Shown here one piece after another: positions 3,501-55,003 of a stretch of 64,000 nt of DNA (position 1 is the stretch's first letter; each line of letters opens with the position of its first letter). This stretch comes from Owenia fusiformis (Eukaryota), in NCBI GenBank assembly GCA_903813345.2, contig CAIIXF020000001.1, positions 6,200,001-6,264,000 on the forward strand. Direction: 5' to 3'. A program made the position numbers and the translations under genes. The notes under the pieces were generated by a model. The model searched no databases. It saw only the letters and a program-made list of their open reading frames with translations, and had not been told where the DNA came from.

Positions 3501-6406
3501 GAACATGATATTCTTTTAATTCATCGACAAAATGGAGTCAAAGTTGACATCGAACAAGACACCCAACATACCAATAACCTTGACAAATCTCGCATTGACC
3601 TTGACCTTATTTCTAAGTCAGCTAGACGGACATTAGGAATTTGAGAAATTCCAGAAATACAAACAAAGGCATAGAGCATTTCAGTTCTATGCCCATGCTT
3701 GATCTATACTGCATTTGACCGACGACGGGAGTAAGTGAATTGCATGTACTCAAAAATGAATTTTACAGTAACTGAATAATAGCATGGATATCCTTTCTGT
3801 ACATACTTATCAAAAATACAAGTTCTGGGCAAGGATTAAGTGCACAGCAGCACTCCACTGGAAATGTATTCTGAGTCGGATTAACCTAATGACCCGAATT
3901 ATGAAGTACTCGATCAATTGTACTTTCATTCGAAAGTAGCATACGAAGGTTGATCATAAAGTTCTCATAATACGAGGGGTGATCAATAAGTAATGGACGC
4001 TTTTTTACACAGATACTTTTTATAGACCAATCCCTTTGATTTTCCTACCAGTGATACATCATTCAATTATCTATCAATTCTGAAGATTTGAAGACAAAAT
4101 ATATAATATATATTGATATATCCTTATTTCCGTGAAGGAGGTACTGGTACCCCGGGACCGACATTTACGTCACATATTCAGTTTTTAGCCAGTTTGGTAT
4201 TTCAGTTAGATTTGAACCTTTTATATGCAACAAGTGTTGTGTTGTTTGACATTTTTGCTGACTGGTAACACATTAACAGACAGTATTGTGATGTCAGAGT
4301 GTTTTATAGAAGTGGTTTGCAGGTCAATTTGAGAAAGCATTGTGGAAGAAAGGGGTGGTGAGAGAAGGGAACACCCTACTCCATATGGACAAAGCACATG
4401 CCCACAGATCTCAAAATCTTCAGAAAACAATATCCCTGGACCTCAATATTGAGCCATTGGCCAATGCACCATATTGTCCAGATCTGCTCACATGTGACTT
4501 GTTTATTTCTATACTACTTATTTCTATAGAGAAAGGACGCAGGTTTATTGACATTGATGAAATGAAACAACCCATGCAACTGCATCTTGCGACCATGTCA
4601 GAGAATGGATTCAGCCTTGTCTCACAATCCTGAGTTAAGACGATGAGGAAATGTGTACATGTAGCACTTGATGGAACCTATTTAGAGGGCCCTGTGGAAT
4701 GAATGTGGCATGAATACCACATAGTGATGATAAAATATTCCAAATCAACTATGGCATTACAAAATGGGGTAATTCATGACCATAATGGTTTGTTTTGTTC
4801 AGCCTGCATTCAACTGCATTGCATGTTAAACAAGCTAAAATAGCTTCAGAATATATGACGTAAATGTCGGTCCCGGGGTACCTGTACCTCCTTCACGGAA
4901 ATATGGATATATCAACATGTATTATTTATTTTGTCTTCAAATCTTCAGAGTTGATAGATAATTGAATGATGTATCACTGGTAAGAAAATCGAAGTGATTG
5001 GTCCATAAAAACTATCTGTGTAAAAAAGCGTCCATTACTTATTGATCACCCCTCGTATCTATATAATTTCTTTATGTTTCAATATAATTTTCACAGAATG
5101 TGCAGCATGAAATGTTTTCTTAATCCAGCAAAACAATAGGACCAATAGATAAGAAACGGTTGCCATAGTAACTCACATCGTAATATTTCAGTTAAAATGA
5201 CATATACTACATCAACCCTATGTATTGCCTCCACCCCTGTACAATCATGCCTAATATACCCAATTCATTCCCTTTTTGACAGAGGCCCAATCAGGTCTAA
5301 ATGATGATCGTCATTTTCGTATTATATGTTCTTCATTATAACGTATACATGTATGTGTTATATTTGCCTGAAGATATTAGAACTAACATATAGTTGAGGT
5401 AGGATAATAGTTAAAGACTGGAGTTACGTTGGATGAAGGTGAGCTCGATATAGAGGAATCCTCGCAGCTGATAACTGAACCTATTTTTGGCGTAATGTTA
5501 TTGCATATTGCCAGTGATGAGGTACGCTTAAATTAAAGAAAACTATATCGTACATTATGTGAATTGTGCATTCGTTGGTATAAAAGGTTCAATAAATAAT
5601 TGGAATTTGATTTTAATTATCTAAAGATAATTGATTTTATCATAGTCTTGCTTAAAATACCCTGTACTCCCCCTTTATCCTTCTCTCTAGTATATTGCCA
5701 GGTAAAGAGAGTGAAGGTGACGGGGGTGGATATAGTCTTTGAGCAAGACTAATTTTATCATGATTAATGCATAATGGACCGGAACCTAACAATGAAGCGG
5801 TCATCATTGCATTTTTTATTTATACCTTCTTAGCATATCTATCCCAGACTACATCCAGCTCTCCCAGTTTTGGTGCATTTTATATATATATAGAAACATG
5901 CTATCAGAGTAACCTTAACTTGATCAGTCAGTTATCTCGAAAAGATACAAAGCTGTGTATGCACACCAAATTATAAGTCAGTCCAGGTAAACCTTTTATC
6001 CGCATAATCCGGATATAGACATACACCGGGCTTCTTGGTATTTGGTTATTTACATTCTCAAATCTTGAATATATAAAAGCTAGAGACTCAAATCGGATCA
6101 CAAGGCTTTTTCTATAAAAAGCCGAGTTTTATGGACTGTTATATGTCCCAAGTCGGTAATTAGCCTGCATTGGAATGGCTCTGAATAAGTATCCTTGAAC
6201 ATGGATCGGTACTTAAACGAATTGCATTATCAAGGATATGGTGAAAACTCATATTAATTTCCCAAAAATGCATCTCAATTTAAAATTGAAAGTACCTCCA
6301 TGTTTCCAGTGGTCAACGATATGAACACTTTTAGACCACCCTTTTCTGCGCCTTGATCGGGAACCGTCTCCTCCGGAGTACTCGGACTTTCTTCAACCTC
6401 CCCCAT
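513..6406 (-). CDS. SH3BGRL: SH3 domain-binding glutamic acid-rich protein (SH3BGR/SH3BGRL family, thioredoxin-like fold); probably 3'-partial. Exons 6296-6406, 3308-3493, 2830-2952, 1154-1189, 513-551
   Basis: Spliced translation MGEVEE...GGLKVFISLTTGNME|MRNQQTIIQGLLEAKNIEFEMIDISDP...RKFMRRNAP...PLPPQIFNGEHFVG|NFEAFFEAVETQHLYKFLKLP...PEPEPPAEE|AKEEKEEDGEEK|DAVDGEEKEDEEK matches the family motifs (KVFIS, IEFEMIDIS, LPPQIFN, FFEAVE...FLKL). All introns are GT-AG and phase 0. The last exon ends in a GTAAGG donor, so the gene likely continues left of the window. Confidence 0.9.
921..1104. mobile_element. Short MITE, PIF/Harbinger-like
   Basis: Terminal inverted repeats (TIRs) ACACTGACGGATC / GGATCCGCCAGTGT, with G/C-run-rich interior; lies in an SH3BGRL intron. 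Confidence 0.6.
1820..2340. mobile_element. Degenerate palindromic MITE
   Basis: Inverted arms, e.g. 1932-1980 aatcacaaataaaggctcaaacacccgcaatattgg versus about 2197-2230 ccaatatcgcgggcgtttgaacctttatttgtggtt; boundaries approximate. Confidence 0.5.
3973..5055 (+). mobile_element. Non-autonomous mariner element with long TIRs and a transposase remnant
   Basis: TA|CGAGGGGTGATCAATAAGTAATGGACG...CGTCCATTACTTATTGATCACCCCTCG|TA, with TIRs of about 210 bp. ORF 4340-4633 LLHMDKAHAH...APYCPDLLTCDLF is a decayed mariner LHDNARPH / PPYSPDLAPCDF motif. Confidence 0.9.
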
Positions 6407-9075: not shown

Positions 9076-12000
9076 TTATCTATTTCTAGCCTCCCAATTT
9101 TGTTTTTCTTGTCTCCATTGTTTTAACATGTGACCAGGGACACAGTGTTCTTCTAAACAGGCTTCACAGAGGCATCGTCCCATTCTTGTTACAGTTGAAG
9201 GCCACTGTGGGACCTGTCAACAGTAAATTGATGCATTTAATACATCAAAACTACTTGCAATATATAACAACCTCATTTCAAAGGGCAACATAGTGAAATC
9301 TTGGCCCAGAAGTTATACAAAATATGAGTTTAAGTGTCTCATAACTAAGCATATTGACATCACATTAACATTGTATAAGACCTTGGCTTGGAACATACCA
9401 TTCCGACTAGGTGCACACGCCATTTGTTCCATCTGATGCCCTCGTGAAAGGTGCGATCACACCCACAACATTTTCTGTCGGCGACATCACAAGCACTCCC
9501 CATCAACTGGCAAGTTTTCGTATCTCCTTCTTTAAAGAAACCTCTAGGACATATTTTGTTTGGCACAGTAGATGGAATCCCTGAAGTTTAAGGTAGCCTT
9601 CCATTCAATAAAAACGAAGGAGAATGTTTATATAGTCTCGTTTAGTATCCATAAAATAGAGCCTTTCTAACTTTAAACAACATGTAAAAATGCGTTTAAT
9701 AGTAAATAAACAGATTGCATACGTGTTTCACAATTCAGACCAGTAAATCCCTCACGGCAATTACAAGAATACGTAAGCGTGGACTTGGACTTTACATCTC
9801 TCTCATTGCAGAATTTAAGCAAGTCATAATCACATTCTGGGGTTGGTCCATTGGGAACAATCTCCCGAGTGTTAACCGTTGGAAATGCTTCACATATATC
9901 ATCATTTGTTTCACAAAGTGGTATTGCAAATTTATTTATCACGTTTTCACATACAGATCCTTTGGGACAGGGATTAATATGGTGGCAAAGATCTATAATA
10001 GAAGGATATCGAATGGAGTTCATTGCAGCTTTTCTGTACTATATTCTGTAAAGCATTCCCTACCATCGAACGCAAATTCAGATTATCGGCCGGGTATCGA
10101 ATGTTTTGTCCTTAATATTCTCCAAATGTTACCTTCTCCTTGGCACCTTCCGCCTACCCATCCAGTAGGACAGTCACATCTGTATTCACCTATGAGGTCA
10201 ATACACTCTCCACCATTGTTACAAGGTGAGCTCACACATTCATCTGATGTAATATTAAGAATGTTAATCCAGCAAGTTGACTATCAAGCGCTTGAATTAT
10301 GAATTGTCTTAAACAGGCAATGCGCCTATTTTTGAAGGAAAAAGGACAAAATATTATTCCAGACATGTTACTCACACACTCAATCAAATATGATAAAAAC
10401 TTTAGATTGGATCAATATTGTTTATTCGGATTATTTTCTCGGATTAAAAGATGGCGTATGGTTGAAAATCCTATCAAAAATGAATGGATACTAAATACAA
10501 ACAACAATGCCATCATTCAATGGCATTGTTAAAAACTTGAAATATATAAATTGATAGATCGAAAATATTTTTTCATGATCTAGTGTCAACTCTGATGTGA
10601 TCTGTTTGAGCTGTTTTTCGTGTCAAATGAAGGATCAGGTATTTGTTAATCCATTGGAAATACTATGAAGATCAAATGTGAAACTTCATTTACGCATTTT
10701 GTTTCTTTAATACAATGATAAATGTTGCTCATTGAGCGTTCTGAGACATAGCTTGAACGTAAATTGACTGGTGGTGTTTTCCGTCGGAATGCAGGATGTT
10801 TTATCAAAAATATAGCATATTGTACCTATATCTATTTCACAGAACTGACCGGTGTAACCATACTCGCAAACACATGTAAAGTAGCCAGGCCCATCTATAC
10901 ATTCTGATTGGTGCTTACAAGTAACTCCCCGGCATTCATCTGGAAAAATATGTAGAAAGATTTCTGATATCTTCTCTAGATCTGTGGAGTGAAATGTATA
11001 AATTACTTTTTACGTTTTACGTTTTACTAGCAATGGGATAAAATGAAAAGAGTGAATACCAAATGCCAAAACACAAAATGTGTCTTCCCCGTCCCAGTTG
11101 CCATTAATACACATCCGAACCTTTGGACCTCCAAGCTCATACCCTGCGCCACAGTCTAATGTATATGTTGACCCATTTACCATTTCCGTCGGTGTATAGA
11201 CGAAAAAACCATGGTCTGGAGGTTGAAGGTGAACACAACCCCAGCCTATACGAGTAAAGTAAATGTTTATAATATTCACACGCTCTTCCACGCAGAAACA
11301 TTCAAAATATTTGTATACACTTTTACAATTGTACTATTGCTTATATTATTGCTTATATTATTTTGATTTTTCATGACAATCCTAAATAGATGCGCATAAC
11401 AAATAGAGTATCATTGATTTTTCAAAAATAGATCAAGAGACGTACTGCAGGTTCCATCTCCCACAGAAGGATCGCATGTGCTGCCCATATTATATTCGAT
11501 ACATTCCGCATCGGAACGACATACGCATCTGCAGTTTGAGCAGGTGGATCGTCCTGGCAAACCAACACAATCGTTGTCTTTACCACATTCAACTCTTGCT
11601 GAAAAAAACCATTCAATCTACATATCTGTTTAAGAGTTCTGTTTACAGGGTGACCCAAAATATGGTCAACGAAAATCTTTTGAAAGCCTTTTAAAGAAAA
11701 ATAGTGTCAACTTAATCATTTTGTTGCATAATTTACATTGTGTGTGCGACAAAGTAGTCTTTGGATGTTTCTGTGAGAGTCAAATAAAATACTCATATTT
11801 ATTCAAAAGATCAAATTAAATTAATACTACCGCTACTACACTTTCGGTTGTACGACGTGTTGAGAATGCATTGGGAATGGGGTGTGACAATATATATATT
11901 ATTCAAGTTATTCATGCTATCAAGAAAAATTGAAAAGATGGATGCTTATTTATTGTTACATGTGTATTTTATTTATTTCATAAAGCACGTAAATTATGAA

Positions 12001-15000
12001 ATCGATACCATGTAGTGTGATATGTATGGTTTGAAAGCAATTTGAATAGTTCGAGCCTGCTTCACCCTGTACATAATTCAAGAATACTTAGTATTTACGA
12101 AAGACATGGCACTTGTTCATTTTCCTTGAAAATATTAACATTTGCCTCAAATGATTATATCATGTGTGGCTGACCTGTGATATGCTCTCGTCTTTATTAT
12201 TCTGTTTTGATCATTTCAAATAATAGTGAAACTGCAAATACTGAGAATGCCATTATGTTCCAAGTGTATACATCATTCGGGAATATACAGAACGCTGATG
12301 TCAAAATAAGTTCTATCATGATTCAAGTGGGATTCGTCAACCAATTTTCTGCACCAACAATTCCATTAAAAATATATCGATGTAGAGTATGGTTCAATGC
12401 GTTTTATGCCAGTAGTACACTTGTCTTTTGGTCTACTCACGATCAATGATGCATGAAGTTGAGAAATCTTCTTCCCATTTGTTCTTTACACATTTTCTTG
12501 AAGTTTCTCCCTGTAGGATGTAGCACCGGTCACATGTAATTTTTGCGCTACATCTATCCTCATTCTTGCACGTCACCCTGTTAAAGCAATCACATTGTTT
12601 AGTACCCAACCCAAAAAAATCAGTAAACCAAAGGCAGTGCCAAATGTGTAACTCAAATGATAATGTAAATGAATCACGTTTTGTATTTAAATGTGCACTT
12701 GGTATTCATCAGAAGCTAGAAAGTTTTTTCTTAAAGAAAACAAAGACATTTTTCATTTAAACATGTTTTTAAAAATAAAAAATAAATACATTAAATGTTT
12801 TGGAAAATATTTGCAAAAAATATTTTATATGAGAAAAAAGTGTTTAATTCAGAAAACTGAATTGCACTTATTATTGCAAGTTTGTATGAATGAATAAATA
12901 AATAAATAAACAAATAAATAAATAAATATATAATAGTACTCTTATAGTTTGTTTTATTAAGTGGTCGATTTATTCGATTTATTGATCGATCGCTCCGTTG
13001 ATATTTTCAGATTGATCAATCAAACTGTTCTAATGTTTTATAAAACTAACTCACGTATAAGAACCTCCGTCGATTTCAAACGCCGGACAATTGTGCGATA
13101 TATTTTTTGGATTATACCCGCTACAACTTTGAATCTTGGGTGTGTGTTCACACTCTGCACAAGGCTTAACTACAAAAAATGGTTAATATTATCAATTAAG
13201 ATTGAAATCCCCTGTGAATTGGACGTCTGTTTGAATAGTCTTAACTGCTCCGCTTGAATGATTTTATTTATTTATATATTCAGTAGGCTATGTTTTAAAT
13301 TACCGACAATGAGCGGGTGACACGGATCGTGTGTATTCCCGACGACAGGGTGGTAAGTTGCCTACATAGAAACAGAGGGGGATCTGTTTGTGAACAAATG
13401 CTTATAATGGGTGGTAAATGAATGGTGTGTCATAGAGCCCAAAGAGTATAAGAATGATATTCAATTATCAACAAAAGTACTTTTTCAGCAGCTCTCTTTT
13501 CAAGATGGGAACACTTCGAGAAGATTGAACCTTATTTGGTAATCGATTCCAAATTGTTGGTGCTGTTAAACTTAACATTGAAATGAAATTCGTCCGTATC
13601 TTGGGTTTATCATAAGTATCCGTGTTACTAGTATTGTGTTCATGTCTCGCCTGAACCATTTTGAAAAAGTTAGGACATTTTTTAACTATATTAACTATAT
13701 AGAACAATGCGGCGCACGGTGCAATGTGTTGCAGTACAGTACATACGCAGTACGGGTGTGAAGTATACATTACCCATCACAAATAACCTGATGATGGAGA
13801 GAAAATCCGTGAAAGATGCATCGGCGAATAAAGCATTATCATTGGATAGGTGCTGACCAACGATGGACTGACGTTCCTTACAGTATATCCCCACCTTAAA
13901 GTATATATATACGATCTTTATTAAGTTGCTAATAACCCCGTCACACAAAACTTTGTTGTTGACGAACTAGTCTAAACGGCTTAAAAGAATTGCGAGAGAG
14001 TTGGATAATAACCAGGGGCGTCAGACCATATTCGAAAAAGAGGGAGCGTTTTCCCCCAGAATATAGGTGGTGCGGCAAGTGAATGCGTGACCAAAGGCCG
14101 CTCATATCGTCGGGGGGGCTGATGCTTTTTCCACCGAAAACGTTACCTTATTTTTAACATGTATCAATATCTTTTCTGAACAGCATTTTTGAAATTTCAC
14201 AGGAATCTCACAAAAGGAATTTCTGGCCAGTATGAGAGCACCCCCCCCCCCCCCTCTGACGCTCATGACAACCTTTCCTCATCTTTGATAAATTAGATAT
14301 GTACAAGTAGCAATGTATCATATAGGGTCAAAAAATATACACTTACCAAGCAAGGAGTTTTACCATGCCCTTTAACAACCAATGAACCGCCATCGTATGC
14401 GTTACTTGGTAACGCTGGTTTTGAGCAAATGTGATTCGGAACAGACAAGTTTCGAAGGACTGCTTTACATTTTTCTGTTTCCACGGTCATCTCATGGCTA
14501 ACTGAGAAGAAGCAAAATATGAAGGATTACTTTGGAAAGCATAATTAATCTTAATGTTAAATAAAGAATTTACGACCAACACTGCGCCCATCAACAGGAC
14601 ACTTTCTGGTTGATACATGCATTATTAAGATAACTTTACAACGATATCCCTCGTGGACTCTCCTCACGTTCAGGAACATATTATTTCCCTCTTACCTATA
14701 CGGTTAGGTCCTGTAAATCCAGACCACGTAACTAACGTACCATCAGCCACTGTATATTCACCGAAATTTATAGGTCCCGCATCGTCTCCAGACGTGTCCA
14801 AACATCTTTTTAGCTTGAATATTGTAACACCCAATGCTATAACGTCAATCTTGATAAGTTGGTCATTCTCAGTGTTTGCTTTGACCTCTTGTACGTTTGC
14901 CTTGCTTTTGTGCCCAGCAATCACACTGCAACACATGTACTCAAAAATAAATAATAAATGATCTATGATAATCAAAAAAATGAAATATCCACGGGAAATC

Positions 15001-15444
15001 AATCGAACTGAATCTTGATGCGCATTGTAATAGTGATTCCTTTAATTTACTCATATTAAATGAGATGGCAACACAAATAAACAATAACATTAAATCCGAT
15101 TTATATTGATTCATTGTACTATTTCATCTATTTTTATACTCACGTTATACGCTTATTCATTTTACTCTTCAACTGGTTTTGGACACATTTAGACGGTGCC
15201 AAAATATGACATTTTGTAACAATGATGCCAGTGCACATTCTGTTGCCATTCTTAACACGAACCAACCAATGATTGGTCAAACGCGAATCGTCTTCTCTTT
15301 TCTCTGTTTGTGTTGAGGTGCGATGGATATCTTTGCCTGGCTCAGATGAATTAGATATATGAACCCCTTTGTCCTTTTGAGTCACTTGCTCTTTAGGCTT
15401 ACACATTTGTACTGATGGACTGTCACAGTTTGTGCATGGGTTAG
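9076..15444 (-). CDS. Mosaic extracellular protein: inactive trypsin-like domain, Sushi/CCP, Cys-rich module, Sushi, 3 EGF, Cys-rich C-terminus; 5' end unresolved. Exons 15144-15444, 14696-14925, 14347-14501, 13304-13361, 13055-13169, 12441-12577, 11446-11598, 11060-11245, 10826-10939, 10133-10243, 9723-9992, 9399-9580, 9076-9213
   Basis: 13 GT-AG exons join with compatible phases into one open frame of about 716 codons ending in TAA at 9076-9078. Motifs: HWLVRV...[17 protein letters not shown] and AYDGGSLV (trypsin fold); [20 protein letters not shown] and [20 protein letters not shown] (Sushi); DECRGVTC...[14 protein letters not shown] and [34 protein letters not shown] (calcium-binding-type EGF). 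Confidence 0.85.
13468..13660 (-). mobile_element. LINE (CR1/L2 group) ORF2 3' fragment in an intron
   Basis: HEHNT...PKIRTNF...[25 protein letters not shown] matches the typical CR1/L2 C-terminal pattern HNTR..P..RT..P.LWN.LP..S..FK..L. Confidence 0.65.
14014..14266. mobile_element. Short Harbinger-like MITE
   Basis: Termini AGGGGCGTCAGA and (C)n-TCTGACGCTCAT are inverted. Confidence 0.45.
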
Positions 15445-16678
15445 CTGTCAAAGTATTAAGAAATGAATAATATATTTAAATTATGGATATACAATGTATT
15501 TGGTTATTATATTCTTCCAAGCCCGGGATGCAGGGAAATGTTGAACTCGTGAAAGATGCACATTTATCGTATCATTGATAGAAATCGTGGCAATATATAA
15601 GTATAAAAATCATTGAAAGATGAACAGATATTGCCCTCCAGAGAATGAAATATTTGCTTATTATTTCATAGTCTCATGTAGGACATAGACCAATACAGAA
15701 AGTGAGGAATATGAGTACAGTGATGTAATTCATGATAATAGAATTGATTTTTCTGTAGTTTACTTTTTTGTGACTACAGAAACGTAAAATAAATTTAATT
15801 GGAATAGTGTTATTTTCGTAAATGCATATAATGCATCGACCTACTTGCTGACCATGATTGATATGTCATTATGTTTGTCAAACATGTTTGTCCAAAGTAG
15901 AATATTTACTTCATAATAGTGCATTAAAGTACTTTACATCAATTTTATTTGAAACGATTTCCCTTGGAATATTTAAAAATATTATGCTTACCGTTAATGA
16001 ACCGAAACAACATGTCCTTTGCAATCTTGTTCACAGTAACATCGATGTATATTGCCACTGATTTTTTCTCCCCTCTTTTATTAGTGATATCTTTACTTTC
16101 ACTTGCCAACCCTACCTTGATCAATACATATGAGACATATATCAAATAGACCAATCCACAATAGAAAGTGATCTCACCTTCGAATTCCAATTAATTCCAA
16201 TAATTATTATATATATAATTATTATATGATTGTAATAAAAAGCGGGTCTTCGAAGTTGAACGATTGTGTCTTAGATTGACTTAAAGTTTATTGAAACTGT
16301 AATATATGGTATGATTAATTACTACATCAACCAATGGTGTATAATGCTTTTCTTAATCGATAGCTCAAAATGGATTTAAAGTGAGATTTTTCAGTTCTGA
16401 ATTACTCAGAGTACAGCCTTCAACCCTTGACAGATCATATCAAAAGGGAAAACACAGTGCTTAGGAGATGACAGACACAATTATGTCTCTTGTTCACAAC
16501 ATTCGTTTGTTGCAATTTTCACTGGCTAGTTTCCGAATAGCAAACGTCGTCATGATGTTTTGGGTTATACTTCATCATCATTATGATGTCAAAAAGATTT
16601 GAACTAATAGCTAGATAGTTTTATTTTAAAAATCTATTAATTTTTTTAAAATATATGAATTTGAACACAAACTATTAC

Positions 16679-17468
16679 CATACAAGGTTGGCCATCTTTA
16701 GCCGTTGCAACCATTGCTCCCCCATAATCCACCTTCTTCACAGTGTAACCATGTACACATAAGACACCCCGTTTATTTCCATCTGGACAGTTAGTTGTTA
16801 CTGTCACACGATGTGTTTTAATCTGATTACGTCTTCTATCATCAGGCGAAGACTCCAATGAACGGACGGTTGTTACCATGCCAACATTTACTCCCCTGCT
16901 TGTAATTTGAACGGGTGCTACATATTTAGTGATTTCAACACATTCTGCAAGTTGTGTTATTATCGCTCCTGTAGCCCGATTTGATTTGTATGTCCTTGGT
17001 GTTTTTTCAAACGCTATTTGTACATCATCTTTGTTTAGTGTTCCTTCACCAAGATACATTCTACAGATATAATCAAATTTTGTTAATGATTTTTGACGAT
17101 CATTTATCGGCAGGTGATTTTATACTTTAAAGTGACGGTCGTTCACTTTCTTATGTTTCCCTTATATAATAGTTGATGGTCGCTGATTGACGATTAAGTG
17201 CAATTCCTTTGGCTCACCTTATCCCATTGTCTTTTTGAATGCACCAACTCGTCGACAGGACATGACATGGTGTCACCAAGGTTCCAGTACAATTTTTCTT
17301 GCCATTTGTAATTCTAACAGCCCAATGCGCAAAATCATCTTCTTTATACTCTAATGATGTTGACACTGAGACCAACAATGTAACCAATAGTACGTTGTCT
17401 AACCCACATACTAAACTTTGTGAGGAAGAAAAGATATTTAGTTGCTCGTGTATCCCATATTTGATCAT
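16679..17468 (-). CDS. Second (upstream) inactive trypsin-like domain preceded by a signal-peptide-like stretch. Exons 17218 to about 17415 (or to ATG 17468) and 16679-17060. Either the 5' part of the mosaic gene or a separate paralogue
   Basis: VLLVTLLVSVSTS, then HWAVRITNGKKNCTGTLVTPCHVLSTSWCI...R|MYLG...QLAECVEITKYVAPV...VLCVHG...VDYGGAMV...QPCM|gt. The phase-2 intron after the His-region exon and the phase-0 intron after PCM/PCL are at the same positions as in the downstream domain. Confidence 0.75.
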
Positions 17469-36132: not shown

Positions 36133-38788
36133 TATCGGTCCGAAGTTTCAAAATCGTCAAAATCTCAGCATGATAAAAAGAAAACGCATTATAACAAAAA
36201 CGTAATCTAGACCTAAAAACATCGCTGGATACGAGATGCAGGATTAATCCCATGAAGTCTATTTTACATCTGTCTTATCACTGATTCGTTCAGCCAGAGT
36301 ATACTCCTAGAAATTTAGTAGACCCTGATTGGATTTGTGGTAGGCAGAGTGTATGCTGCTGATTAGATTCAGATGGATAACGTCCAGAGGTTAAATTAAC
36401 TCACAATGCATTTCTGATTTATTATTGATGGAATCACGATAATGTAGGATCGATGATCCATATCTATAGACTCGTAGAGACAATCCGATTGAATAAATGA
36501 TACGGGAAATGGATAAACTCGTATTATTCCCGAACAGCACTAGCAACATGATTTGCAATGATTGCTCACATTCTATTTATAATGACACGTCGACAAATAT
36601 TCAGATCCAAAGGTGTATGTATAGTCAACGGTTAATCTAGGAATCCTTGAAAGGGAAAGGGGGCAAAATTAAAGGTTTTTTCTCAGTTATTTTTGCAGAT
36701 CCTGAAACTGATGGACATAGGATTTGTTTAATTGTGCTTATTGATACAATTCTGAATATTGATTGTGCCGGGATTTATGACTAAAGTCGTAACTACGATA
36801 CAAAGAGACTAAATTATTCATTGAGATAAACCAATTGAACAGACCTTCTTGAGCACTTTTGATAAATCATACGTCACCGCTTACTATTTGTAAATCATTT
36901 GTCAGTAAATTGCAATGTTTGAACCATTTTGATTCTACGGAACACTAGAACATATATTGATCGGTTACTTCAGCATCTCGGACACATCATCGATAAAATT
37001 ATATAAAAACAACACTCCTGTGGAATCAAGTGCAAAGGAAACACAAGTATGATGTATTTTAAAGTGTTTTGTCTTGATACATTACGCTTTTAAATTGAGA
37101 AAAGCACTTAGTAGTCATGAAAAAATCGAATTTTTCACTAATTCAACGTATAATCAGACAATGCAACACTTGTTACTCTAGCTTGTAATTTAGAATTCTT
37201 TTTTGAAATTTTACTTGGGGATTGCACGCCTTTCTAATTGAGAGGGAAGTAACTTTAAATCTGTTCAATAAAACTACTTAATCAACTGATAATACCATTT
37301 GTTGGGAGTTTATGCTCCGTATCTTTATCTTTTACCTTTTTACGTATCTTAATTTCCAGTCTTTTGTGATAAGATAAACAAAAAGTACAATTAATGCCTT
37401 TATTAATCATTAATCAATATTATTAAATTCATTATAAAATATCATTCGGATGTTATTAATCCACCATTTTCTGGGCTTTTAATAACTTGGTGGAAAAGGT
37501 ACAGCGGTTTGTGCAATTACATAAACCTCCAATGGTCTGAATGGTATTAAAGCTGAAGGCAATGTACAAGAGTGTTTATACGTTCATCTAGATGTTTTTG
37601 AGAAGCTTCCAGCTAGAAATCATTTATGCATCGTTATCTGATTCTCCACAGTTGGATTGTTTATTCAGGAGCTTACATGCAAACGTTGAATAAGACTCAT
37701 ACTAATGCTCAAAGTGAGAATTACGGATCTGAATCAATGCTTAACCAGCAATGATTTTAGGTAGAAATTGCATTCAATGAGCTGGGGATTAATGTACAAT
37801 TACTGAAAATAGACGATGGTTTAAGGAATGTCGAGAAAAAAATCAATATTATGGACAATGACTATTCAAAAGATCACATAAATGCTCATAACTGCAAAAA
37901 ATATCACGTTCCGTAAATGTTTTATGCATGATAATGCGTTTTGTCATTTTATTATGATTAAATATAAACGTTTATTTAGCTGTATCTACTTTTCAGATTC
38001 CTCTGCTACTGTGGAACATGTACACATATAAAATATCGTGTATTACACACGGGTGACAAACAGATCTTCACCCCGGGGTTTGAGAATCCACGTAGACACA
38101 GATACCTCGATGTTGTTGTATTGTAATCATCCAAGTTGATAAAATTGACACAGATTTCATCGTCGCTTTCCACCGGGTCTAAAGACGGGTTCAGCAGAAA
38201 ACATATTGGATATCATAAGTCTCTGTTGTACGGATTATGAACACTGAATGGAGTTATGCTTCGTGGCAGAAGAATCTCAGAGAGTTAATCAGGTGATTAA
38301 TCAACTAGAGGATTATATAATTAATCTTACGATATTCGCGGAAGCTAATTCATATATACTTGTCAACGAGCTTGACTTTTTAAAGCTTTAAATGTGACAA
38401 TATTTCGCGATCGGTGACATATCACAGAACTAATATAACAGGGAGATGACAACGTAAAAGTCCTATGCAATGAATGTACAAATAATACACATCGACGTAT
38501 CACAAAAAGTCGCCATCAAAATTATGCTAGAACTATTCTGCTGAATCATTGGCATGATTGATAGTCATTTCTGATAGCCTTGATTTTCTATAAAGTTCCG
38601 TACTACAAAAACTGCAGAGAGTAGTATACCATCCTTTGATTATACATTTATCACCTTTCTTTGCCAATTCTTAACAGAAATTGCATGCTTTATATGCTGT
38701 ACTCTGCAATGAGCTTCAGTCTAAAGGCCCCTAGAGGGACTCATGGACTATAAATTGGATTGTTACTTACACTAACGGCCTCTGTTTT

Positions 38789-39553
38789 ATGTTCAAGCAG
38801 ACCATTCGCAAGTGTATTAATGCTTCAACAATGGTGCAGAAAAGCCATAACCAAAATGGTTATGATGCCGGTACTTTGTTGAAAGTAGAAGGAGTGGATG
38901 TTAATAACACCTTCCTTGCTGTTATTCTGGACAATGGCGAAGTTATTCATCGGAATGTAACGAATAGCTACGATCACGTGGGTGCCTCATATTATGTTAC
39001 CGCTGTTATCATGATATATGGACTCTCGATTGTGTTCATGATTGGATCGTTGGTCAAGAGAAGTAAATCCGACGTTGATAACAGCGTCAACATTTATCTT
39101 AAAGAAGTAGGCCTGGGTAGTAGCAACAAGTTTGAACTGCGCCACAAAAAAGCCAAGGCAAGGGCTAATCTTTCAGCTAAACTGACTCATCAAAATATTT
39201 CATCTGGCCTTAAACTTACTAGTTCTATAGCAACGGTTGCTGATGGTGGTAAAATGGCTGCCGTCGTCAAAGAAGGAAAGCCAAATTACTTCAACAATCC
39301 ATGCATCGACCTCACCAGACTGTCCAATACCCAGTCATTGCTGCAAAATACACCACCGGGGGTGGCGAGTGAAGACGTTCAATTTCCAAAATGTAGTTCG
39401 GAATACGAAGGTGGCGACTCCGAAGGGAGGACGTTCCAAAGACAGTCGTCGTCGTCAACTGTTAAACTAGAGCCTCTCTTTGAAGAAGTTGAGGTTGAAG
39501 ACGACGATGACGATGATTTGTTTCAAACTGAACACGCAGTTCTCATGGTGTAA
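38789..39553 (+). CDS. Single-pass membrane protein, 254 aa (or from ATG 38831), with a KCNE-like TM segment and a disordered acidic C-terminus
   Basis: Long ORF in AT-rich DNA; N-glycosylation sequons (NNT, NVT) before the TM helix ASYYVTAVIMIYGLSIVFMIGSLV, then basic KRSK; no signal peptide; Ser-rich and acidic tail. Confidence 0.8.
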   Translation: MFKQTIRKCINASTMVQKSHNQNGYDAGTLLKVEGVDVNNTFLAVILDNGEVIHRNVTNSYDHVGASYYVTAVIMIYGLSIVFMIGSLVKRSKSDVDNSVNIYLKEVGLGSSNKFELRHKKAKARANLSAKLTHQNISSGLKLTSSIATVADGGKMAAVVKEGKPNYFNNPCIDLTRLSNTQSLLQNTPPGVASEDVQFPKCSSEYEGGDSEGRTFQRQSSSSTVKLEPLFEEVEVEDDDDDDLFQTEHAVLMV

Positions 39554-45071: not shown

Positions 45072-46252
45072 CTAACTTGCTAGATCTGTTTCTTCCTTTA
45101 ATCATTGTCACAATTCTAAATGCTTCTTGATCGATCTAACTTGCTAGATCTGATTCTGCTTTTAATCATTGTCACAATTCTAAATGCTTCTTGATCGATC
45201 TAACTTGCTAGATCTGATTCTGCTTTTAATAATTGTCACAATTCTAAATGCTTCTTGATCGATCTAACTTGCTAGATCTGATTCTGCCTTTAATCATTGT
45301 CACAATTCTAAATGCTTCTTGATCGATCTAACTTGCTAGATCTGCTGATTCTGCCTTTAATCATTGTCGCAATTATAAATGCTTCTTGATCGATCTAACT
45401 TACTTGATCTGATTCTGCCTTCAATCATCGTCACAACTCTAAATGCTTCTTGATCGATCTAACTTCCTAGATCTGATTCTGCCTTTAATCATTGTCGCAA
45501 CTCTGAATGCTTCTATATCGATCTAACTTGCTAGATCTGCTGATTCTGCCTTTAATCATTGTCGCAATTATAAATGCTTCTTGATCGGTCTAACTTACTA
45601 GATCTGATTCTGCCTTTAATCATTGTCACAACTCTAAATGCTTCTTGATCGATCTAACTTGCTAGATCTGCCGATTCTGCCTTTAATCATTGTCACAACT
45701 CTAAATGCTTCTTGATCGATCTAACTTGCTAGATCTGCTGATTCTGCCTTTAATCATGATTGTCACAATTCTAAATGCTTCTTGATCGATCTAACTTGCT
45801 AGATCTGCTGATTCTGCCTTTAATCATTGTCACAACTCTAAATGCTTCTTGATCGATCTAACTTGCTAGATCTGCCGATTCTGCCTTTAATCATTGTCGC
45901 AATTCTAAATACTTTTTGATCGATCTATCTTGCTAGATCTGATTCTGCCTTTAATCATTGACACAACTCTAAATGCTTCTTCATCGATCTAACTTGCTAG
46001 ATCTGATTCTGCCTTTAATCATTGTCACAACTCTAAATGCTTCTTCATCGATCTAACTTGCTAGATCTGCTGATTCTGCCTTTAATCATTGTCGCAATTA
46101 TAAATGCTTCTTGATCGATCTAACTTGCTAGATCTGATTCTCCCTTTAATCATTGTCACAACTCTAAATGCTTCTTGATCGATATAACTTGCTAGATCTT
46201 ATTCTGCCTTTAATCATGATTGTCACAATTCTAAATGATTCTTGATCGATCT
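45072..46252. repeat. Minisatellite, 64-bp unit (67/70-bp variants), about 18 copies
   Basis: Unit ctaacttgctagatctgattctgcctttaatcattgtcacaa(t/c)tctaaatgcttcttgatcgat starts at 45072, 45136, 45200, 45264 and so on. Confidence 0.95.
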
Positions 46253-49982: not shown

Positions 49983-50527
49983 GTCTAAACGATTAGATTT
50001 ACATATTGTTTTGATTTGCATACTGAACAAATAATTTGAACAGAATAAGTTACGAAATCCGACTCTTAAGCCAAATTACATTTGAATGACTTAACAATGA
50101 GAAAAGGTTTACTAAACTGATTAATAAAACAATCAATGGACGTTTATTAAAAAGAAAAACCAGTACAAGTCGTTATACAAATATTGTGTTAAACTTATTC
50201 AGAAGATAAGCAGGCTTCACATGTTTTCAGTCACGCCTGCCAAAAATAAACCTAGCCAAACGAGACAAATTGCTTGAAACGCTTGATTCAACTTTTTCCA
50301 ACATTGTACCATTTCGAATAAATATCACATACCTGAAAATTCACCTAATAATAGCATGACGTGCTCCAAGTTAAGATCGATAATTTAACGGTGTACCATA
50401 TGAAGTACAGTATTTATGGTGGACTACTTGCAATAGGACAGATTTTCAGCAAGCACTTTCTCAAAGTAAATGTGCCATAAACTAAAAACACCAGTGGATC
50501 GTCACATACGATAAAAGGGAATAAAAG

Positions 50528-52231
50528 ATGGCCAGGCCGATGAAAGTAAAGAAAATACTGTACATAAGTATCACAATTGTTATGATATTCGTTATACTAT
50601 CATATAAACATACAACAAAAGATACTGTATTAAAACGTCGTGATATTCCTATTGATAGAACCACTGAAATCAAAGAAATATCCTTGGCGACAATGGACGT
50701 TTTTGATAAAGATGATTTGACTTTACCAGATGGCTGGTGGGTTTCGCGCAAAGATATATGGAAAGAGGAGAACGACTGTGGAACTGAAGGACTTCAGTCA
50801 CACTGTGCAAAGGTATTAGTCACAAAGTGTCGACCTAAATCTAAAAACATGAACTTATTCATACCTTTAAAGCAAAATGAGGCACTGAGAGGATTTTATT
50901 TGTCACTTAGAAGCAGTGGAAAGAATCTTGTCATGAACAGAACTCTTTTCAGTGATGATGTATTTTTCTTTGGTGCAATGGTAGCCGTGCGACATTCTGA
51001 CTTTTCTACCCAGATATTGGAGATGAGTCTTCCACCAGGAGGTGAAGGATACACAAAATCTGACCTTCATATTGTCCCATTCGGAAAAGCCAGTGTAACA
51101 AGCATAACAATTGCCTTAACTTGCCATGGATTTGTTGGAAAGGCAAAATTTACGGATATACAACTTAAACCAATTCTTAACACTCAATTGTCCGACATTT
51201 CACCTTCAGATTTTGTTGAATCATGTCCAACTTTGCCTTCACCACTTCCTGATACGCCCAAGTTTAAAATGAAGCATGTTGTCATATCAAAGGGCAAGTT
51301 TGACGTAGAGAATAGTATGTTAACACTAATAACCCAACTGTCATTAGCTCGTTTGGATGCACTAGAACGAGTAATTAAAATATGGGATGGCCCTGTCGCA
51401 GCACTAGTTGTCTACGTACCCTTGGTTGAAGGTGATGACATTGAAGACCAGGAAAAACAGAGACAGCTTGCACACACCAGGATCATGAAAGTTTTAAACT
51501 CAGGAAGGATACGGAACTGTCATATAATATACGTTTATGGTAACCAGCCGGATGAAGAGTATCCGGTGAATCATCTACGAAACATTGGTATACGTACTGT
51601 CAAAACTGAATATATGTTCATTTTAGATGTCGATTTTATTCCCTCTTCAGATTTTCAAAAGTCATTTGAACTTGCCTTCAAAAGACAATATCAAACGGCA
51701 TCTGAAGCAAGATTTAAAAAGGAAGTATATGTTTCCCCGGCGTTTGAATGCGTACAGGCCTGTGGCGAAGGGCATTTACCCCGACAAAAGCGTGATCTCA
51801 TAGATACTGTCAGTAAAAAGAAGCCCGATGTTCAGATTTTTCGAGGACGTGTTGCCCCTGATGCTCATGGGTCAACTGATTATGCACAGTGGTATACTAC
51901 CGACAAGATGTATAGTACCACGAATTATCAAAACAGTTACGAACCGTACATAATAATTCGTAAACATGACAATATCCCTGTTTTCGATGAACGTTTCAGC
52001 GCCTACGGCATGAATAAAGTCGGCTTTATGATGGAATTAAAAGCGTCCGGATATGAGTTTGTTGTCCTACCTGACTGTTGGGTCACGCATGTGCCCCATG
52101 AGAACAGTCCTGACAAAAACAAATTCTTGCATAGTCGTATTGAAAAGCTCAAGAATCGTATACTGAGATTCGAATATTTGTTAGATTTGAGCAGAAAGTA
52201 CAGAATTGGAAAATGTCAAACTCAAACTTAA
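50528..52231 (+). CDS. Type II membrane glycosyltransferase, GT49 family (LARGE C-terminal / B4GAT1-like glucuronyltransferase), with a putative N-terminal jelly-roll module; intronless CDS, 567 aa
   Basis: N-terminal TM ILYISITIVMIFVILSY; GT49 motifs TLITQLSLARL...WDGP, YPVNHLRNIG, YMFILDVDFIP (DxD), VYVSPAFE, YEPYIII, FDERFSAYGMNK, GYEFVVLPDCWVTHVPH. Confidence 0.92.
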   Translation: MARPMKVKKILYISITIVMIFVILSYKHTTKDTVLKRRDIPIDRTTEIKEISLATMDVFDKDDLTLPDGWWVSRKDIWKEENDCGTEGLQSHCAKVLVTKCRPKSKNMNLFIPLKQNEALRGFYLSLRSSGKNLVMNRTLFSDDVFFFGAMVAVRHSDFSTQILEMSLPPGGEGYTKSDLHIVPFGKASVTSITIALTCHGFVGKAKFTDIQLKPILNTQLSDISPSDFVESCPTLPSPLPDTPKFKMKHVVISKGKFDVENSMLTLITQLSLARLDALERVIKIWDGPVAALVVYVPLVEGDDIEDQEKQRQLAHTRIMKVLNSGRIRNCHIIYVYGNQPDEEYPVNHLRNIGIRTVKTEYMFILDVDFIPSSDFQKSFELAFKRQYQTASEARFKKEVYVSPAFECVQACGEGHLPRQKRDLIDTVSKKKPDVQIFRGRVAPDAHGSTDYAQWYTTDKMYSTTNYQNSYEPYIIIRKHDNIPVFDERFSAYGMNKVGFMMELKASGYEFVVLPDCWVTHVPHENSPDKNKFLHSRIEKLKNRILRFEYLLDLSRKYRIGKCQTQT

Positions 52232-54071: not shown

Positions 54072-54536
54072 TATGGATTGGTTCAACTTCAAGAAAAATG
54101 AAACTGGTAGCTAGGCGAAAGTCCGGATGAAAATGATGATCTCTCATTGCCTTTATATTTATTATTAATTTGAATCTTAAAGGACAATAAAGAAACTGGT
54201 TGTTTAATATGTGGGCTCCATCAAGCACCATGCTGATCTTTCTTGCCACATATAAGATGTCAGAATAAGACACATTTTCCTGAATCACCGTGTTTCCTTG
54301 ATGCTGGATCAGTTTTTCTTAATCTTACTTATTTTTCTAATATTCCATTTTTGTGTGGAATTTATTTCAGAATATACTGAACACCTTACCCCGTGTGTTT
54401 CTCTGCTTGGTTGAATAATATATATGTCAATTTGGTTCTTTAATTTGAGGCATGACTAATATCAGTGTAAAATTGTTTCTTTAAATAACATTCTGAAATC
54501 TGTAATTTTTTAAATAGACCCATAGTGTCTGCACAG

Positions 54537-55003
54537 TTATTGCACAGTTGGATTTAGTGTTTCAGATTTTCAATTTAAGTTATTGCACAGTTGGATTTAG
54601 TTTTTCAGATTTTCAATTTAAGTTATTGCACAGTAAGGTTTTTCAGATTTTCAATTTAAGTTATTGCACAGTTGGATTTAGTTTTTCAGATTTTCAATTT
54701 AAGTTATTGCACAGTTGGATTTAGTTTTTCAGATTTTCAATTTAAGTTATTGCACAGTTGGATTTAGTTTTTCAGATTTTCAATTTAAGTTATTGCACAG
54801 TAAGGTTTTTCAGATTTTCAATTTAAGTTATTGCACAGTTGGATTTAGTTTTTCAGATTTTCAATATAAGTTATTGCACAGTTGGATTTAGTTTTTCAGA
54901 TTTTCAATTTAAGTTATTGCACAGTTGGATTTAGTTTTTCAGATTTTCAATTTAAGTTATTGCACAGTTGGATTTAGTTTTTCAGATTTTCAATTTAAGT
55001 TAT
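54537..55003. repeat. Minisatellite, 43-bp unit, about 11 copies (two 38-bp variants)
   Basis: Unit ttattgcacagttggatttagtttttcagattttcaatttaag. Confidence 0.95.

Follow-up and report, generated by a model that had tools for sequence, protein, structure and literature searches.

What becomes of a trypsin-like domain once its catalytic residues are lost, and how does it come to stand in front of, and not behind, a run of Sushi and EGF modules? The question is raised by a minus-strand gene (17468-9076) in a 64,000-nucleotide stretch of the Owenia fusiformis genome (assembly GCA_903813345.2, contig CAIIXF020000001.1, here C1, positions 6,200,001 to 6,264,000), the whole of which we call the window. 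We found that the gene joins two catalytically dead S1 (trypsin-family) domains to Sushi, EGF and Cys-rich modules in one chain, that triad-intact genes of the same genome already place their S1 domain first, and that the product may serve as a non-catalytic component of mucus or extracellular matrix.

Sixteen exons with AG/GT ends join, after manual fixing of boundaries, into one open frame of 989 codons that ends in a TAA at 9076 and specifies, in order, S1, S1, a Sushi-like module, a Cys-rich module, Sushi, three EGF-type units, and a Cys-rich tail. The model was assembled before it was compared with the NCBI protein CAH1772629.1 (959 aa, Owenia fusiformis), to which it is identical at 958 of 959 residues and at all 15 junctions. 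The preliminary description of this locus had placed a second trypsin-like domain just upstream and suggested that the S1 domain might be doubled at the N terminus before Sushi and EGF; both our frame and CAH1772629.1 carry the two S1 domains in one chain, as suggested. Its chain of 13 exons from 15444 to 9076 was upheld by the same two lines of evidence for twelve exons, and one had to be replaced. The proposed assembly of the coding sequence followed by a domain search gave, for CAH1772629.1, Pfam matches to Trypsin (E 5e-13, two stretches), Sushi, and EGF on one chain. Pfam detected no ZP, clip, C-type lectin, CBM_14, or vWD domain in that protein, and no CUB at E 0.1, and the claimed lack of a membrane helix holds, as Kyte-Doolittle averages over 19 residues reach no more than 1.47 once the N-terminal stretch is set aside. 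Two isoforms are annotated publicly, the second being CAH1772630.1 (partial). A published Owenia annotation is described as RNA-guided (Mikado, Augustus, PASA) (PMC9977687). The window-gene stretch occurs once in the assembly, with no allelic or tandem expansion found. The link from S1 to Sushi is probable, on the strength of the open frame, the public model, and a paralogue described below. The exons are as follows.

Exon 1, 17218..17468, minus strand: signal-like hydrophobic stretch (about 17395-17357) and first strands of dead S1 domain 1 (C42, C50, C58; H57 replaced by W); 5' end as modelled.
Exon 2, 16679..17060, minus strand: core of dead S1 domain 1 (D102 replaced by G, S195 by Y; C111, C168, C182, about C208).
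Exon 3, 15992..16115, minus strand: remaining strands of S1 domain 1 and its C-terminal helix.
Exon 4, 15144..15444, minus strand: end of unit 1 with its three-Cys motif, then a charged linker (about 43 residues) and the beginning of dead S1 domain 2 (H57 replaced by K).
Exon 5, 14696..14925, minus strand: S1 domain 2 (D102 replaced by G).
Exon 6, 14347..14501, minus strand: S1 domain 2 (S195 replaced by D).
Exon 7, 13774..13894, minus strand: end of S1 domain 2; missing from the preliminary description; alternative donor 13788 in CAH1772630.1.
Exon 8, 13055..13169, minus strand: end of unit 2 with its three-Cys motif, then the opening half of an atypical Sushi-like module (7 Cys).
Exon 9, 12441..12577, minus strand: second half of the Sushi-like module, without a Pfam match and assigned by its Cys/Trp pattern and its likeness to the paralogue and to a gene on C12.
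Exon 10, 11446..11598, minus strand: 9-Cys module matching no Pfam family.
Exon 11, 11060..11245, minus strand: Sushi/CCP (Pfam E 1.1e-6).
Exon 12, 10826..10939, minus strand: EGF-like; Pfam EGF-clan matches below cut-off, best E 0.002.
Exon 13, 10133..10243, minus strand: EGF (Pfam EGF E 2.8e-10, EGF_CA E 1e-4).
Exon 14, 9723..9992, minus strand: split EGF with an insertion (10 Cys, 90 residues).
Exon 15, 9399..9580, minus strand: first part of an unnamed 10-Cys C-terminal domain common to Owenia vWA proteins.
Exon 16, 9076..9213, minus strand: second part of the 10-Cys C-terminal domain and the stop codon.

The EGF unit of exon 13 is presumably of the calcium-binding type, whose consensus it fits. 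Three EGFs had been described; EGF-type units are indeed present, but the third is the split form of exon 14.

The exon that had to be replaced lies after position 14347, where the preliminary description had spliced directly to 13361. This junction is most likely wrong, and the publicly annotated exon 13894-13774 fits better: it opens with VG, as does the third exon of all seven other dead S1 units in the gene and its paralogue, its 121 nt compare with 115-127 nt in those third exons and with 58 nt for 13361-13304, both public isoforms use it, and it supplies the C-terminal helix of S1 domain 2. Against a profile of the seven other third exons it scored 0.4 bits and 13361-13304 scored -1.6, neither being significant, and the choice is therefore based on the VG start, the length, and the public model. 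The rejected exon 13361-13304 does keep the frame, yet 25 AG..GT candidates of this intron do the same. In CAH1772630.1 the donor at 13788 lies 14 nt earlier and a stop arises at the junction in the S1 frame; use of this donor would end the protein directly after S1 domain 2, yielding either a short two-S1 product or a substrate of nonsense-mediated decay.

Both S1 domains, which share 24% identity (E 3e-19), are by their sequence catalytically dead, as had been claimed. In an alignment with 20 trypsin domains from the Owenia genome, domain 1 has W/G/Y at positions 57/102/195 and domain 2 has K/G/D, so that each keeps 0 of 3 triad residues, and the I/V-V-G-G activation terminus is absent before both; it is present in the first unit of the paralogue and in CAH1797146.1, a triad-intact Owenia protein. 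The fold itself is well supported. Pfam Trypsin scored 49.8 bits over two stretches (cut-off 20.6), a profile of the core exons searched against PDB returned S1 proteases throughout the best 60 of 88 matches, and an Atlas model of domain 1 reached a template modelling score (TM) of 0.77 to trypsins. The AlphaFold and Foldseek check that had been proposed recovered the trypsin fold: blocks of the predicted local distance difference test (pLDDT) were mostly 50-89 across both S1 domains, with trypsins included in the alignment, and the top Foldseek matches of the predicted S1 fold were trypsin, enteropeptidase, and chymotrypsin (E ~1e-11). The C-terminal half of the full model, where alignment depth was lacking, stayed below pLDDT 50. 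In each unit C42, C58, C168, and C182 are present, C191-C220 and C122 are missing, and further Cys occur at about 50, 111, and 208; a three-Cys cap closes the unit. The resulting ten Cys, an even number, are kept 10/10 in both domains and are probably disulfide-paired, the predicted pairs including C50-C111 and a bond from the Cys at about 208 to the cap. The domains are basic (isoelectric points (pI) of 9.2 and 9.0), and the units of the paralogue have values of 4.6-5.2. Judged from the sequence, both domains are serine protease homologues (SPHs), defined as an S1 fold with triad substitution (PMC11172050), and are not active S1A proteases, triad and activation site both being gone.

The protein is likely secreted. 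Its most hydrophobic 11-mer (2.7) sits at the N terminus and aligns with the signal peptide of the paralogue, in which a pro-peptide, a furin-type site, and VVGG follow the signal; the window gene lacks all three. An in-frame ATG lies at 17468, and the public model begins at a TTG at 17378. Two other beginnings were considered. An acceptor at 17365 is possible as the start of exon 1, but the public model starts 13 nt upstream and the stretch resembles the paralogue signal. A signal-like open reading frame (ORF) at 23346-23137 was rejected as an upstream exon: its sequence recurs in an intron of the paralogue and falls in a very deep repeat bin.

Relatives were searched for in the 499.5-Mb genome, and one is the paralogue at C1:53.40-53.44 Mb (C1:53402000-53443000), which contains six dead S1 units, five of them reached via linkers that are 57-79% Pro/Thr/Ser. 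These are followed, as in the window gene, by Sushi-like, Cys-rich, Sushi, EGF, EGF, and split-EGF modules, with exon lengths of 186, 114, and 111 nt identical in the two module runs; the paralogue then adds another three EGF exons, one Sushi, one Sushi-like exon lacking a Pfam match, and a CBM_14 domain (E 8e-7). The module exons are all phase 1-1. The public annotation splits the paralogue into partial pieces (CAH1775725.1/726.1/728.1), which we infer to be one gene. Downstream of it, at C1:53.453-53.464 Mb, lie two tandem small genes with a hydrophobic C terminus and a Cys spacing that we take to be like that of Ly6/three-finger glycosylphosphatidylinositol (GPI) proteins.

A profile search of 1.84 billion proteins gave 19 matches, three of which were the paralogue pieces, followed by a multi-S1 protein of gar (E 3e-12) and Owenia CAH1797146.1 (E 2e-11). 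The latter, at C10:20.486-20.491 Mb, has a signal, an activation site, an intact triad, the three-Cys cap, and a Thr-rich tail, and a genome search with it revealed three further triad-intact genes, one on C12 (19.098-19.104 Mb) and two on C11 (7.029-7.041 Mb). In the C12 gene, S1 and cap are followed by a 1070-residue Thr-rich stretch (45% Pro/Thr/Ser) and by 7-Cys Sushi-like and 9-Cys modules; in the C11 genes they are followed by a charged linker and two Sushi domains (Pfam E 1.6e-10 and 6e-11, one copy scanned). All four therefore put S1 first, and three have Sushi behind it. We further noted that all four lack C191, that the C10 and C12 genes lack WG after residue 214, and that the C11 pair is encoded on opposite strands with about 6 kb between. 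Since triad-intact Owenia genes already have this order, the placement of S1 before Sushi is older than the loss of catalysis.

In the trees, the 12 family domains are set apart from other trypsins (99/97); within them the eight dead domains, two of the window gene and six of the paralogue, in all of which the triad is lost, form one clade (100/99, or 99/97 with a corrected P1 sequence) nested among the four triad-intact relatives; the first tree used 20 Owenia outgroup trypsins, of which the second kept 5. A phase-0 intron is common to the dead units and absent from the four active genes. The best tree joins the first window domain (W1) with the paralogue units P1-P2 (89/83) and the second (W2) with P3-P6 (95/93), which would place two units before the gene duplication; approximately unbiased (AU) tests leave the alternative clades W1+W2 (p 0.093) and P1-P6 (p 0.066) unrejected, so that this is the best tree and not a proven order.

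The tail (exons 15-16) leads to a third group of genes. Matches to its first half lie at nine loci that form two clusters on C10 (15.36-15.40 Mb and 21.16-21.21 Mb) and, weakly, at one on C7 (27.13 Mb), beside which a vWA-like ORF was noted. All six database matches of the domain are Owenia proteins; of the five besides the window protein, all annotated in the C10:15.36-15.40 Mb cluster, four carry Pfam vWA and the fifth a partial vWA-like stretch, and in most of these a Thr/Pro-rich stretch precedes the tail domain. Twenty-four columns are invariant among the six sequences. We obtained no significant Pfam or PDB sequence match, be it to a C-terminal cystine knot (CTCK) or to another known Cys-rich domain (Atlas best 0.77), and a model with pLDDT 42 gave no structural match at Z>=2, though so poor a model says little; the tail is, as far as these comparisons reach, a 10-Cys domain matching no family. 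Given that the paralogue ends in CBM_14 at the matching place and that the acceptor is phase 1, the simplest interpretation is that the last module was exchanged by exon shuffling. The 9-Cys module of exon 10 alone does not match its counterpart in the C12 gene significantly (E 0.31), and exon 10 together with the Sushi-like module does so at a level equalled in 0/1000 shuffles.

The claim that the architecture is lineage-restricted was supported insofar as no close relative was found outside Owenia in the libraries searched. Among 398 candidates retrieved with the active domain, no non-Owenia protein exceeded 28% identity, a search for homologues of exon 2 gave no matches, and the multi-S1 domain of gar (P0011) falls outside the Owenia family in the trees. 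The profile search did not, however, list CAH1772629.1 itself, whose cluster is represented by an S1-less isoform (P0006), and negatives from these protein libraries are accordingly weak; few close relatives of Owenia are likely to be among the searched sequences. We therefore regard the family as confined to Owenia so far, and only provisionally.

We propose, from tree and exon structure, that the family began as an S1 subfamily in which the protease domain led, followed by a three-Cys cap and a stalk either Thr-rich or charged, with Sushi behind in three of the surviving genes. Catalysis was, on this reading, lost once and the dead domain then doubled, after which the gene was probably duplicated: one copy would have expanded to six units and gained a chitin-binding end, and the copy in the window would have kept two units and come to end in the tail shared with the vWA family.

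What, then, might such a protein do? The preliminary description had suggested a non-enzymatic recognition, adhesion, or matrix protein of immunity, mucus or tube, or gamete surface. Its non-enzymatic, extracellular, and mosaic character is supported by our results; among the three settings, the relatives point to mucus or matrix. We favor a non-catalytic protein that is secreted and serves binding or scaffolding in mucus, in the tube lining, or in a comparable extracellular matrix, and assign to this a probability of roughly 0.45. Our grounds are the mucin-like, chitin-binding character of the paralogue, the long Thr-rich tails of two active relatives, a tail domain common to vWA proteins, and the vWA, ChtBD2, and EGF domains reported from an annelid tube proteome and genome (PMC8476170). 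In this proposal the S1 domains, which are dead, basic, and presumably disulfide-locked, would capture partner proteins or acidic polymers, the acidic stretch of Sushi and EGF modules would act as a spacer, and the tail would anchor or polymerize the protein with vWA proteins. A bolder extension, which we regard as doubtful but worth stating, is that dead S1 units on glycosylated stalks are multivalent heads whose interchangeable tails (CBM_14 or the 10-Cys domain) dock onto chitin or a vWA-mucin network, that the 10-Cys domain, with at least 10 loci, is a new polymerization or anchoring module of annelid mucus or tube, and that oweniids have made a trypsin into a repeatable non-enzymatic building block; the conserved odd Cys counts of the Sushi-like and Cys-rich modules (7 and 9) could in that case give inter-chain links.

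Several observations weigh against this proposal. The window gene has no mucin stretch (Pro/Thr/Ser 28% in the linker and 19% in the whole protein) and no chitin-binding domain, so that the role proposed for it is taken over from its relatives; no confident fold was predicted for the tail domain (pLDDT 42); and in one RNA run, of which 6% was read, depth was at most about 0.5-fold over exons 1-14 with no listed junction. Exonic variants in three contig runs are mostly replacements (11 of 16 codons in the rows listed). The start codon and signal peptide are provisional. Regarding expression more generally, no splice junction of the window gene was among the 15 joints listed of 78 (four runs). 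In run X13 only the 3' end had strand-consistent depth, the bin 9102-9652, into which some repeat also falls, giving 3.66 vs 0.13 and the bin 9653-10203 giving 0.54 vs 0; runs X1-X3 yielded unspliced, intron-spanning contigs and behave as DNA. In these contigs a 398-bp segment of the intron between exons 12 and 13 (10309-10706) is absent, though very deep in the same runs, and is probably a polymorphic repeat insertion.

The replacement-rich variation fits relaxed or diversifying selection on surface residues, numbers being small, and bears on more than one alternative. Under relaxed selection, the gene could be a fading duplicate with little or no function left: the pro-peptide and VVGG, both kept in the paralogue, and the Thr-rich linker are gone, RNA depth in the one run is very low, and over 10707-11435 a hand count of 40 of 503 rows gave similar variant densities in exons 11-12 (10 in 300 nt) and in the introns beside them (19 in 429 nt). 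We consider this the least probable of the explanations weighed, as 989 codons are open across 16 exons with intact splice sites, two isoforms are annotated, all unit Cys are kept, and the 16 variant codons include neither a stop nor a Cys loss. Branches of the dead S1 units are 1.1-2.2 changes per site long, yet their Cys are kept 10/10, and together with the intact frame this argues for long-term constraint on the fold. The same long branches and replacements would suit a protein of the gamete surface or egg coat comparable to acrosin or ovochymase, with OVCH2 sharing the S1-first order (PMC10850435), and an Atlas feature match of 0.94 carries the name ovochymase-2-like, albeit as an automatic name in a list of trypsin clusters. 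The absence of CUB and ZP domains and the chitin-binding or vWA-family ends of the relatives nevertheless make a gamete role improbable. Acrosin, too, places its S1 domain first.

Fast evolution of both S1 domains and the replacements at 11 of 16 variant codons would also fit an immune or defensive recognition protein or decoy, whose dead S1 domains would attach to microbial surfaces or to foreign protease inhibitors in the manner of insect serine protease homologues and azurocidin-like proteins, beside Sushi and EGF as interaction modules of complement-like character. The basic pI of both domains also fits such a role, which we hold to be possible but unlikely: the gene is a single copy, Pfam gave no clip, CUB, or C-type lectin, and its closest relatives carry Thr-rich stalks, CBM_14, or vWA, and not lectin or clip. 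Finally, the protein could act as a cofactor or dominant-negative regulator of the triad-intact C10, C11, and C12 genes, which share its cap motif, as has been proposed for SPH domains of polyserases (PMC11172050) and of beetle polypeptidases, and in the paralogue the first dead unit is still preceded by a furin-type site and by VVGG. A regulator seems rather improbable to us, since the window protein has neither an active domain nor an activation site before either S1 domain, and the paralogue, with its tandem array of six units on Thr-rich stalks, is more suggestive of multivalent display than of stoichiometric control. A matrix or mucus component accordingly remains our preferred, if tentative, explanation.

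Elsewhere in the window we noted, on the plus strand, a 568-codon ORF at 50525-52228 encoding a glycosyltransferase of B4GAT1/LARGE type (Glyco_transf_49, E 4e-43), a 272-codon ORF at 38735-39550 with one hydrophobic segment, an acidic end, and no Pfam match, and a DDE_3 transposase remnant at 4310-4630 (E 0.0016), as well as two minisatellites (45072-46252, 64-bp unit, ~18 copies; 54535-55003, 43-bp unit, ~11 copies).

How unusual is this architecture? Complement and coagulation mosaics such as C1r/s, MASP, factor B, and factor C, along with PAMR1 and HGF/MSP, have a single C-terminal S1 domain. They resemble the window protein in combining the S1 fold with Sushi and EGF modules, and HGF/MSP and PAMR1 are also inactive; they differ in that the window protein has two N-terminal S1 domains, no CUB or kringle, and no link Cys at C122. 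The preliminary description had on these grounds treated the S1-first order as unfamiliar, a view weakened by OVCH2, Nudel, and beetle polypeptidases (PMC10850435, PMC11172050) and by the triad-intact Owenia relatives. In OVCH2, CUB domains are C-terminal to S1 (PMC10850435); ovochymase-2/oviductin is likewise a secreted S1 protein with C-terminal accessory modules, but its modules are CUB and its S1 is needed for function, whereas the window protein has Sushi, EGF, and a new domain, and its triads are lost. Nudel carries modules behind an SPH domain, and beetle polypeptidases join several Sushi and SP/SPH domains, Tenebrio pSerP/pSerPH608 being Sushi(2)-SP(H)-Sushi(2)-SPH (PMC11172050). The latter are secreted, with Sushi and at least two S1 domains per chain (both inactive in pSerPH608); unlike the window protein, which has S1 first, no activation site, EGF, and a new tail, they place a Sushi pair and an activation site before each S1, and they show no close sequence link to it. 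Polyserases (TMPRSS9, polyserase-2) and the multi-S1 proteins of fish (P0011, P0014) also have tandem S1 domains, some inactive, in a layout similar to that of the six-unit paralogue, but they keep active units and activation sites. Mucus of limpets contains Sushi, EGF, and vWFD proteins, with no such architecture in the accessible part of that report (PMC7333891).

Literature searches covering few subscription papers found no published description of S1-S1-Sushi-X-Sushi-EGF3-X or of the family, no paper on an Owenia serine protease in mucus, and none on an inactive serine protease with a chitin-binding domain or mucin. The wider impact of these observations is modest, the family being seen in one species so far and its function only proposed. 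Even so, a single genome here displays a series from triad-intact S1-first genes through one loss of catalysis to tandem arrays of two and six units, with exchange of the last domain between symmetrical phase-1 exons, and thereby offers a testable case of pseudo-enzymes turning into modules for structure or binding. An unnamed Cys-rich domain is defined as well, and three unstudied Owenia gene groups are tied together as candidate mucus or tube components. With its Owenia relatives the window protein shares an S1 subfamily marked by extra Cys at about 50, 111, and 208 and by the three-Cys cap, and a tail domain found in vWA proteins such as CAH1796793.1; it differs from them in the number of S1 units, catalytic state, Thr-rich stalks, and last domain. 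Compared with the known systems, the parts and the principle of an SPH mosaic are familiar, and it is their combination, together with the tail domain, that appears to be new.

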